Of a stretch of DNA of 5,337 nt, positions 2,934-5,285 are shown piece by piece. The notes under the pieces are model-generated. The model worked only from the letters and a program-made list of their open reading frames with translations, did no database searches and was not told where the DNA came from. The DNA comes from a virus (taxonomy: Duplodnaviria; Heunggongvirae; Uroviricota; Caudoviricetes), in the IMG/VR virus record IMGVR_UViG_2548876943_000007, one strand, 5' to 3'. The position numbers and the translations under genes are program-made. Each line of letters begins with the position of its first letter. Position 1 is the stretch's first letter.

Positions 2934-3095
2934 ATGACAAAACGTCGTAAGAAATACCAGGAAAAAGAAGAGATTCGACACCCTGATTCACCTGAGGGAT
3001 TAGTGGTAGCCGCAGCAAATAACAGGGCGTTCGCAGAGCGCCTTGTTGGTGTTTACAGACTAGCCAAAGCAGGAGTGAAACATGGGCGTCGTTAA
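2934..3095 (+). CDS. Small basic hypothetical protein (53 aa) between cII and O, overlapping the O start by 14 nt
   Basis: ATG at 2934 preceded by AGGAG (2924-2928) at 5-nt spacing. Translation [53 protein letters not shown], stop TAA at 3093-3095. Absent from the ORF track only because it is shorter than the track's length cutoff. No family recognised. Confidence 0.5.
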   Translation: MTKRRKKYQEKEEIRHPDSPEGLVVAAANNRAFAERLVGVYRLAKAGVKHGRR

Positions 3096-3912
3096 GTTAG
3101 CTGATTACAGGCCTCAACTGGAGGTCGTGGAGCATCGCGTGGCAGAACTCGAAGATGGCTACACTCGGACTGCAAACACACTGTTAGAAGCCGCCATGCT
3201 TTCTGGACTTACTCTACATCAGTTACTGATTGTTATGGCTGTGTGGCGCAAGACATACGGTTACAACAAAAAAATAGATTGGATCGGAAACGAACAGTTC
3301 GCTGAACTCACTGGCATGGCACCAACCAAATGTTCTACCGCCAAAAACGAGCTTATCAGAATGGGAGTTCTCATTCAGGTGGGGCGTCAAGTTGGTATGA
3401 ATACAAACATTTCAGAGTGGAAAACGAAAGTTAACGGATTTGGTAAAACATTTACCAAATCGGTAAAACAAACCTTCACTAAATCGGTAAAAAGCAATTT
3501 ACCGAATCAGTCAAACACAAAAGACAATATACAAAAGACAATAAATACAAATACCCCCTTACCCCCTAACGGGGGCGGCGATGGGCAGGTTAAACCTGAA
3601 CGTCGCAAGGCAGAACGAATCGACTACGAATCCTTCCTGAACGCCTACAACGCCGAAGTCGGTGACAGACTGCCACACGCTGTTGCGGTCAACGAGAAAC
3701 GCAAACGCCGCCTGAAGAAAATCATCCCGCAACTGAAAACGCCAAATGTGGACGGTTTCAGAGCGTATGTCAGGGCGTTTGTGCATCAGGCCAAACCGTT
3801 TTACTTCGGAGACAACGACACGGGCTGGACGGCTGATTTTGATTACCTGCTGAGGGAAGACTCGTTAACGGGAGTTCGGGAAGGGAAGTTTGCAGACAGG
3901 GGGATTGCATGA
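3082..3912 (+). CDS. O: Replication initiator, lambda O-like (276 aa), with the origin embedded in the coding sequence
   Basis: ORF track 3082..3912 (+). N-terminal region [15 protein letters not shown]...[45 protein letters not shown]...NISEW resembles the lambda O origin-binding domain as recalled from memory. A central low-complexity linker ([47 protein letters not shown]) is encoded by the iteron and AT-rich DNA. The stop overlaps the helicase start (ATGA at 3909-3912). Confidence 0.9.
3439..3580. repeat. Candidate origin of replication: dyad iterons (3439-3459 TTTGGTAAA-ACA-TTTACCAAA; 3484-3505 TCGGTAAA-AAGCAA-TTTACCGA; GGTAAAA repeated at 3442, 3462, 3485), an AT-rich tract with tandem CAAAAGACAATA (3508-3553), then a GC-rich CCCCC...GGGGG element (3554-3580)
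   Basis: Directly visible repeated and inverted GGTAAA/TTTACC motifs inside the O-like gene, followed by an A-rich region and a GC-rich dyad. This is the same layout as lambda ori (iterons, AT-rich region, palindrome) inside the O gene. Confidence 0.8.
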
Positions 3913-5285
3913 GACAGGATATCGAAGCGAGCGTTATCGGTGGCCTGCTGATTGGTGGATTAACTCCAACCGCCAGTGACGTTCTGGCAACGCTTGAGCC
4001 GGAAGCGTTTTCAATTCCGCTCTACAGGAAAGCCTTCGAGGTTATCCGCAAGCAGGCGCGAAACAGAAACCTAATCGACGCGCTGATGGTTGCCGAGGCG
4101 TGCGGAGAGGAGCATTTCACGTCAATCCTGATGACCAGCAAAAACTGCCCGAGTGCCGCAAACCTGAAGGGATATGCCGGAATGGTCGCGGATAACTATC
4201 ACCGCCGTCTGGTGCTGGAAATCATGGATGAAATGCGTGAACCAATTCAGAGCGGAACCATCGACGCATCGAGTCAGGCGATGGACGAGCTTGTAAAGCG
4301 TCTTTCAGCCATCAGAAAGCCCCGTGACGAGGTTAAACCTGTACGGTTAGGGGAAATCATCACCGACTACACTGACACGCTTGACAGGCGTCTGAGGAAC
4401 GGAGAAGAGTCAGATACCCTGAAGACCGGAATCGAAGAACTTGACGCCATCACCGGAGGGATGAACGCAGAAGACCTGGTGATTATCGCCGCTCGTCCTG
4501 GTATGGGGAAAACCGAACTGGCGCTGAAGATTGCCGAAGGTGTTGCAAGCCGCGTTATTCCTGGTTCTGACGTCAGGCGCGGAGTGTTGATTTTCTCGAT
4601 GGAAATGAGCGCATTGCAGATTGCAGAGCGAAGCATTGCCAACGCCGGGAGGATGTCGGTTAGCGTGCTACGAAATCCTGCATCGATGGATGACGAAGGC
4701 TGGGCACGTGTTGCTAACGGCATGAGTCAGCTTGCAGATTTGGATGTATGGGTAGTCGATGCCTCGCGGTTATCGGTAGAAGAAATTCGCTCAATCGCAG
4801 AGCGGCACAAACAGGAAAATCCAAACCTGTCACTCATCATGGCGGATTATCTTGGCCTGATTGAGAAGCCGAAAGCAGACCGCAACGACCTCGCAATTGC
4901 TCACATCTCAGGAAGCCTTAAGGCGATGGCGAAAGACCTGAAAACGCCAGTTATCTCCCTGAGTCAGCTTTCGCGCGATGTTGAGAAGCGACCAAACAAA
5001 CGCCCGACAAACGCAGATTTGCGTGATTCAGGAAGCATTGAACAGGACGCAGACTCAATCATCATGCTCTATCGGGAAGCGGTATATGACGAGAACAGTA
5101 GCGCCGCACCATTTGCTGAAATCATTGTGACGAAAAACCGTTTTGGCTCGCTTGGTACGGTTTACCAGCGGTTCTGCAACGGACACTTTGTTGCATGTGA
5201 CCAGGATGAAGCCAGACAGATTTGCACAGCATCAAATGCACCTGCTGCGCGTGGCAGACGATATGCACAAGGGGCTGACGTATGA
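3909..5285 (+). CDS. Replicative DNA helicase, DnaB family (458 aa; P22 gene 12-like)
   Basis: ORF track 3909..5285 (+). Walker [15 protein letters not shown], Walker B-like [10 protein letters not shown], and [39 protein letters not shown] matching the DnaB motifs (SQLNR...[17 protein letters not shown]) as recalled from memory. Translationally coupled to the O-like gene. Confidence 0.95.

Follow-up and report, generated by a model that had tools for sequence, protein, structure and literature searches.

A P22-type replication origin probably embedded in the initiator gene of a lambdoid prophage

In the stretch of 5337 bases analysed here (hereafter, the window), positions 3431-3606 very probably constitute the origin from which a lambdoid prophage replicates bidirectionally, embedded in the gene of the phage's own initiator and belonging to the specificity class of P22 gene 18; judging from the sequence comparisons set out below, we put the probability of this reading at about 0.9. 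The evidence fits an origin of the oriLambda type located inside the initiator gene, and this reading is supported by comparison with the corresponding regions of related phages. Origins embedded in O genes and the co-variation of the iterons with the N-terminal half of the initiator have belonged to the textbook knowledge on lambdoid phages since about 1980, and as lambda and P22 likewise have their origins inside the initiator gene, the arrangement is one that has already been described. The feature itself is likewise known, as repeats of the P22 type have been both annotated and described, and the result carries little weight as a discovery. Its use lies in annotation, where it fixes the origin (3431-3606), the P22 specificity class and the mosaic build of the O gene. 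It also offers a worked example of one binding motif read in three frames, and of an A-rich tract at which modules for origin recognition and for helicase recruitment are exchanged.

The ORF list, together with Pfam and PHROG assignments, identifies the window as the immunity and replication segment of a lambdoid (pro)phage with N, cI, cro, cII, O and a DnaB-type helicase (Table 1). The O gene, which encloses all four iterons (3431-3514), matches not only the Pfam family but also PHROG 345, 'replication initiation O-like' (E=6e-106), and the DnaB-type helicase is the presumed partner of the C-terminal domain of O. Prophages 97-99% identical to the window are found in many E. coli chromosomes, and of 5426 complete E. 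coli genomes, 35 match the 201-nt origin segment along 80% or more of its length, 2 of them at 100% identity. Two minor features of the immunity segment may be mentioned here. The 122-aa ORF takes the place that rexB has in lambda. Two identical copies of a 19-nt hairpin, TCCCGCCGAAATGCGGGAA, are present, which chance would not lead one to expect: the plus-strand copy (2545-2563) is situated downstream of cro, the minus-strand copy (847-865) upstream of the N-like gene, and they sit where the boxB-like sites of nutR and nutL would be expected.

Table 1. Genes of the window and elements of the putative origin, in order of position.
Feature	Position	Strand	Gene nt	Assignment or remark
N-like antiterminator	229-534	minus		PHROG 271
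122-aa hydrophobic/membrane ORF between N and cI	1108-1476	minus		PHROG 6534 (function unknown), E=2e-79
cI-type repressor	1495-2211	minus		HTH_3 and Peptidase_S24
cro	2318-2512
cII	2621-2899
53-aa ORF upstream of O	2934-3095			PHROG 1331, function unknown
O-type replication initiator gene, 276 aa	3082-3912	plus		Pfam Phage_rep_O (PF04492), aa 19-113, E=4e-36
Iteron 1, TTAACG GATTT GGTAAA	3431-3447		350	same gene position as lambda ITN1
Iteron 2, TTTACC AAATC GGTAAA	3451-3467		370	encodes FTKSVK
Iteron 3, TTCACT AAATC GGTAAA	3475-3491		394	encodes FTKSVK
Iteron 4, TTTACC GAATC AGTCAA	3498-3514		417
A-rich tract, 78% A+T, two tandem ACAAAAGACAATA units	3515-3551			GC 0.22; A 0.68 on the plus strand
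GC-rich element TACCCCCTTACCCCCTAACGGGGGCGG with CCCCC/GGGGG hairpin	3552-3577			encodes PLPPNGGG; conserved in P22, HK97 and Kapi1
Imperfect palindrome GCGATGGGCAGGTT/AACCTGAACGTCGC	3578-3606			inverted repeat I6; DNA fold of 3425-3610, z = -6.7
DnaB-type replicative helicase (P22 gene 12 / HK97 P analogue)	3909-5285	plus		Pfam DnaB_C, E=1e-77; DnaB N, E=5e-13

The unit of the iteron array is a 17-bp palindrome, TTTACC-N5-GGTAAA, in which two half-sites of 6 nt flank a centre that is constant at 5 bp (6-5-6). The units start 20, 24 and 23 nt apart and are separated by spacers of 3, 7 and 6 nt. When both strands were scanned with the consensus TTTACCNAATCGGTAAA, allowing at most three mismatches, six matches were obtained over four places (3431, 3451, 3475 and 3498), where chance would give 0.03, and in 200 shuffles the count never came to six. 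A preliminary description of this DNA had placed origin iterons at 3439-3580, as GGTAAAA/TTTACC dyads and tandem CAAAAGACAATA units that are translated in frame within the initiator. Self-comparison bore out the repeats, since it revealed a family of 23/24-nt direct repeats and several 17-nt inverted repeats in the origin region, along with one TRF array of period 24 and another of period 14. The translation proved right as well, position 3439 being the first base of codon 120 of ORF 3082-3912, from which the protein segment given earlier was reproduced exactly. The delimitation of the units had to be revised. Repeats do occupy the range originally assigned, but the iteron array begins 8 nt to the left of it, at 3431; the GGTAAAA..TTTACC dyads are present, but they span the junctions of neighbouring units, with variable gaps of 3, 7 and 6 nt, and the true phase is TTTACC-N5-GGTAAA; the CAAAAGACAATA units also exist, but they form part of the A-rich tract and are not iterons.

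The A-rich tract is strand-asymmetric, adjoins iteron 4 on the right and contains its two copies of ACAAAAGACAATA at 3517-3530 and 3531-3544. It begins with ACACAAAAGACA, as does the tract of lambda, and it is the counterpart of the high-AT unwinding region of that phage. Lambda also has a palindrome in a comparable position to the right of its AT tract (inverted repeat I3, L131 663-690). In two related loci, L008 (a phage genome record) and L116 (an IMG/VR viral contig), a frameshift at the CCCCC/GGGGG element truncates O, which then reads PLPLTGMAMG..., and the homopolymer runs of this element (3552-3577) may be mutation-prone.

In lambda, the origin consists of four 18-bp dyad iterons and a 39-bp high-AT region, all located inside O (PMC6022878). 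The dyad cores of lambda (annotated as ITN1-4) and of the window follow the same 6-5-6 plan and start at the same gene positions, nt 350, 370, 394 and 417, with spacers of 3, 7 and 6 nt and a spacing of 20, 24 and 23 nt in both. The half-sites, TCCCTC/GAGGGA in lambda and TTTACC/GGTAAA in the window, are the sole difference in iteron architecture, and the earlier statement that the iteron sequence departs from that of lambda is thereby borne out. Because the two architectures match throughout, the CAAAAGACAATA units correspond to the high-AT region of lambda and not to iterons. The likeness extends to the N-terminal part of the protein, as residues 17-152 of the window O are 42% identical to lambda O (E=1e-27), whereas the C-terminal region is unrelated to that of lambda. 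The helicase partner differs too: the window phage encodes its own DnaB-type helicase, whereas lambda has P instead, which loads the DnaB of the host.

The original sequence paper on P22 genes 18 and 12 is reportedly that of Backhaus and Petri, from 1984. P22 gene 18 has the same four iterons in the same places, from which the window differs at 3 of 68 nt, one of them in a half-site. The spacers are alike apart from 3 nt, the A-rich tract is the same, and the GC element differs at 3 of 26 nt. The N-terminal domains of the two proteins are about 94% identical, as counted from the protein sequences, and at the nucleotide level the N-domain block of the window is 92-93% identical to P22-like loci. 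The P22 record OQ031658 has a rep_origin feature on the homologous stretch, with the description 'bi-directional replication origin similar to phage lambda'. P22 gene 18 has been described as carrying four repeats of about 20 bp unlike those of lambda, and each initiator of this kind recognises iterons different from those of the others and located in the gene that encodes it (PMC8022706).

Beyond the iterons the relationship changes. The C-terminal domain of the window O is 60% identical to that of P22 gp18 but 99% identical to that of HK97, and the helicase is of the HK97 type and not of the gp12 type; the pairing of a P22-type C-domain with gp12 was thus not found in the window. Since both the C-domain and the helicase behind the P22-type N-domain are of the HK97 type, the O gene is a P22-N/HK97-C mosaic. 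Salmonella phage BTP1, which also has an origin of the P22 type, shows the same combination of N- and C-domains and is 94.6% identical to the window at the nucleotide level. Phages with an HK97-type origin (HK97, mEp213, HK446, ST104 and phage 2851) share with the window, at 97-100% identity, the first 65 nt of O, the A-rich tract, the GC element, the C-domain and the helicase; their iterons keep the same positions and geometry, but the half-sites are TTAGCC/GGCTAA (units TTAGCC-N5-GGCTAA). In HK97 itself, O is identical to the window over those 65 nt and again from the start of the A-rich tract through the stop codon. The N-domain of HK97 (nt ~66-345) and its iterons, which lie between the conserved 5' end and the A-rich tract, have diverged from the window. 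Alignments with BTP1, HK97 and P22 consequently resolve the O gene into an HK97-like 5' end of about 22 codons, a P22-type N-domain with its iterons, the shared A-rich tract and an HK97-type C-domain, with the A-rich tract forming the boundary, or exchange point, between the N-domain and iteron module and the C-domain module. At the other end, the first 65 nt of O (3082-3147) and the upstream 53-aa ORF (2934-3095) are HK97-like, and P22 and BTP1 differ there, which indicates a second mosaic joint near the conserved CTGGAGGTCGTGGAGCATCGCGTGGCAGA.

It could be argued that the segment is a P22-type origin by descent that is no longer active in this prophage, i.e. a cryptic element. Several related prophage copies do have a frameshifted or truncated O, and a window of 5.3 kb is too short to judge the completeness of the prophage; against this, O and the helicase are both intact, full-length ORFs in the window, and its iterons deviate at only those 3 of 68 nt from the iterons of P22, a replicating phage. 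We consider an inactive origin very unlikely.

A survey of related loci addressed the earlier proposal that a shift in iteron sequence is matched by a change in the N-terminal domain of the initiator. IMG/VR was scanned with the A-rich tract as the pattern, which gave at least 120 loci, and reference phages were added; 121 sequences had enough flank. All four iterons were present in each of the 121 loci listed, with no indel anywhere in the array. P22-type iterons were accompanied by a P22-type N-domain in 39 of 39 listed loci, the window included, and HK97-type iterons by an HK97-type N-domain in 82 of 82, a co-segregation that could in part come from plain physical adjacency. Six apparent outliers to this pairing turned out to be frameshifted or truncated O genes. 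Among the loci listed, P22-type N-domains with their iterons precede either a P22-type or an HK97-type C-domain, and the C-domain tracks the type of helicase. The linkage of iterons with the N-domain, together with that of the C-domain with the helicase, is what one would expect of a protein whose N-domain recognises the iterons and whose C-domain makes contact with the helicase. The proposal therefore holds in the comparative sense, with 121 of 121 listed loci concordant while the C-domain reassorts. The A-rich tract is identical in P22-type and HK97-type origins, that is, common to both specificities, although its invariance in the 121-locus sample follows by construction, as the tract was the search pattern, and was not counted as evidence.

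The same survey bears on the possibility that the palindromes serve something other than an initiator, either as hairpins in mRNA or single-stranded DNA (an attenuator or a recombination signal) or as sites for host proteins. As single-stranded DNA the region has a much more stable predicted fold than its shuffled versions (z = -6.7), and the A-rich tract doubles as a mosaic joint between modules, both of which would be in keeping with such a role. The predicted fold, however, pairs adjacent half-sites with variable loops and has no conserved structure, no Rfam family was matched anywhere in the window, and such a role would leave unexplained both the strict linkage of half-sites with the N-domain and the positional identity with the O-bound iterons of lambda. 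For these reasons we regard a non-initiator function as extremely unlikely.

With 3431-3606 taken as an origin recognised by O, a course of initiation may be proposed by homology with the lambda system. Dimers of the N-terminal, winged-helix-type domain of O would bind the four 6-5-6 iterons, TTTACC-N5-GGTAAA. The A-tract spacers and the spacing of roughly two helical turns (20/24/23 bp) would then allow the bound DNA to bend and wrap into an O-some, which would stress the adjacent A-rich tract (3515-3551) and promote its unwinding. The C-terminal domain of O would finally recruit the phage's own DnaB-type helicase, encoded directly downstream. For lambda and Stx phages, experiments have demonstrated that the iterons are bound, that the DNA bends and what part the AT tract plays (PMC7466680; PMC6022878).

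As the iterons are also coding sequence, it was of interest that the preliminary description considered this DNA to be under dual constraint, as a binding site and as an interdomain linker. Polymorphism was counted on unique haplotypes, in subsets cleared of frameshifted loci and of those whose C-domain is of another type. Variable sites were fewer in the half-sites than in the centres and spacers, both in the P22 type (4/48 vs 8/42) and in the HK97 type (6/48 vs 15/42), and the pooled difference (10/96 vs 23/84) was significant (Fisher p=0.004). Outside the half-sites, codon positions 1 and 2 were more variable than those of the N-domain (4/28 vs 7/186, p=0.04; 8/28 vs 9/180, p=0.0004). Third-codon positions within the half-sites showed no detectable reduction in variability when compared with the third positions of the N-domain (4/16 vs 24/92; 4/16 vs 12/89), and the additional constraint at the DNA level is therefore shown relative to the centres and spacers only. 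Across the iteron segment, lambda, HK97 and the window encode unrelated peptides. The notion of dual constraint thus holds in a softened form, with a DNA-level constraint on the half-sites and their phasing superimposed on a linker peptide whose own constraint is relaxed and in which changes are tolerated.

How the motif is distributed over the reading frame points the same way. The first base of iteron 1 falls on codon position 2, that of iterons 2 and 3 on position 1 and that of iteron 4 on position 3; since the same motif thus occurs in all three frames, its periodicity is set at the level of DNA and not by the peptide. There is next to no probability that the repeats are a by-product of an in-frame duplicated peptide devoid of any function at the DNA level: iterons 2 and 3, 24 nt apart, do both encode FTKSVK, but iterons 1 and 4 carry the motif in other frames, spacings of 20 and 23 nt are not divisible by three and cannot be produced by in-frame peptide duplication, every unit is palindromic as DNA, a property that no peptide repeat calls for, lambda, HK97 and P22 retain the DNA geometry while encoding unrelated peptides, and non-synonymous changes are tolerated outside the half-sites.

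Residues 117-175, which are encoded by the same DNA as the origin, probably form a linker joining the two domains of O, to judge from where the Pfam domain ends, from the distribution of polymorphism and from what has been published on lambda. Lambda O has a flexible linker between its DNA-binding and P-binding domains, and its ability to complement is retained when in-frame deletions are made in the AT region (PMC6022878). A single-sequence AlphaFold2 model of O was too poor for use (mean pLDDT 42.7, pTM 0.27), and a PDB sequence search with O gave no meaningful match, the best hits being GPCRs at E 0.27. We also considered whether the lysine-rich repeat peptide encoded by the iterons, instead of being a passive linker, contributes to DNA contacts or to the assembly of the O-some. 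This seems very improbable; if it were true, each specificity class would co-evolve its linker peptide and its binding site from the same nucleotides.

A third kind of O gene was observed in phage Kapi1 (L009 1034-1165) and in an Stx2a phage (L006). It shares the C-domain and the GC element with the window and has an unrelated N-terminal region. At the place of the iterons it carries direct repeats with a 12-nt period (CCGCACA..), which are translated as peptide repeats of the AHEAAQTTAHD type and may represent another class of linker-encoded origin.
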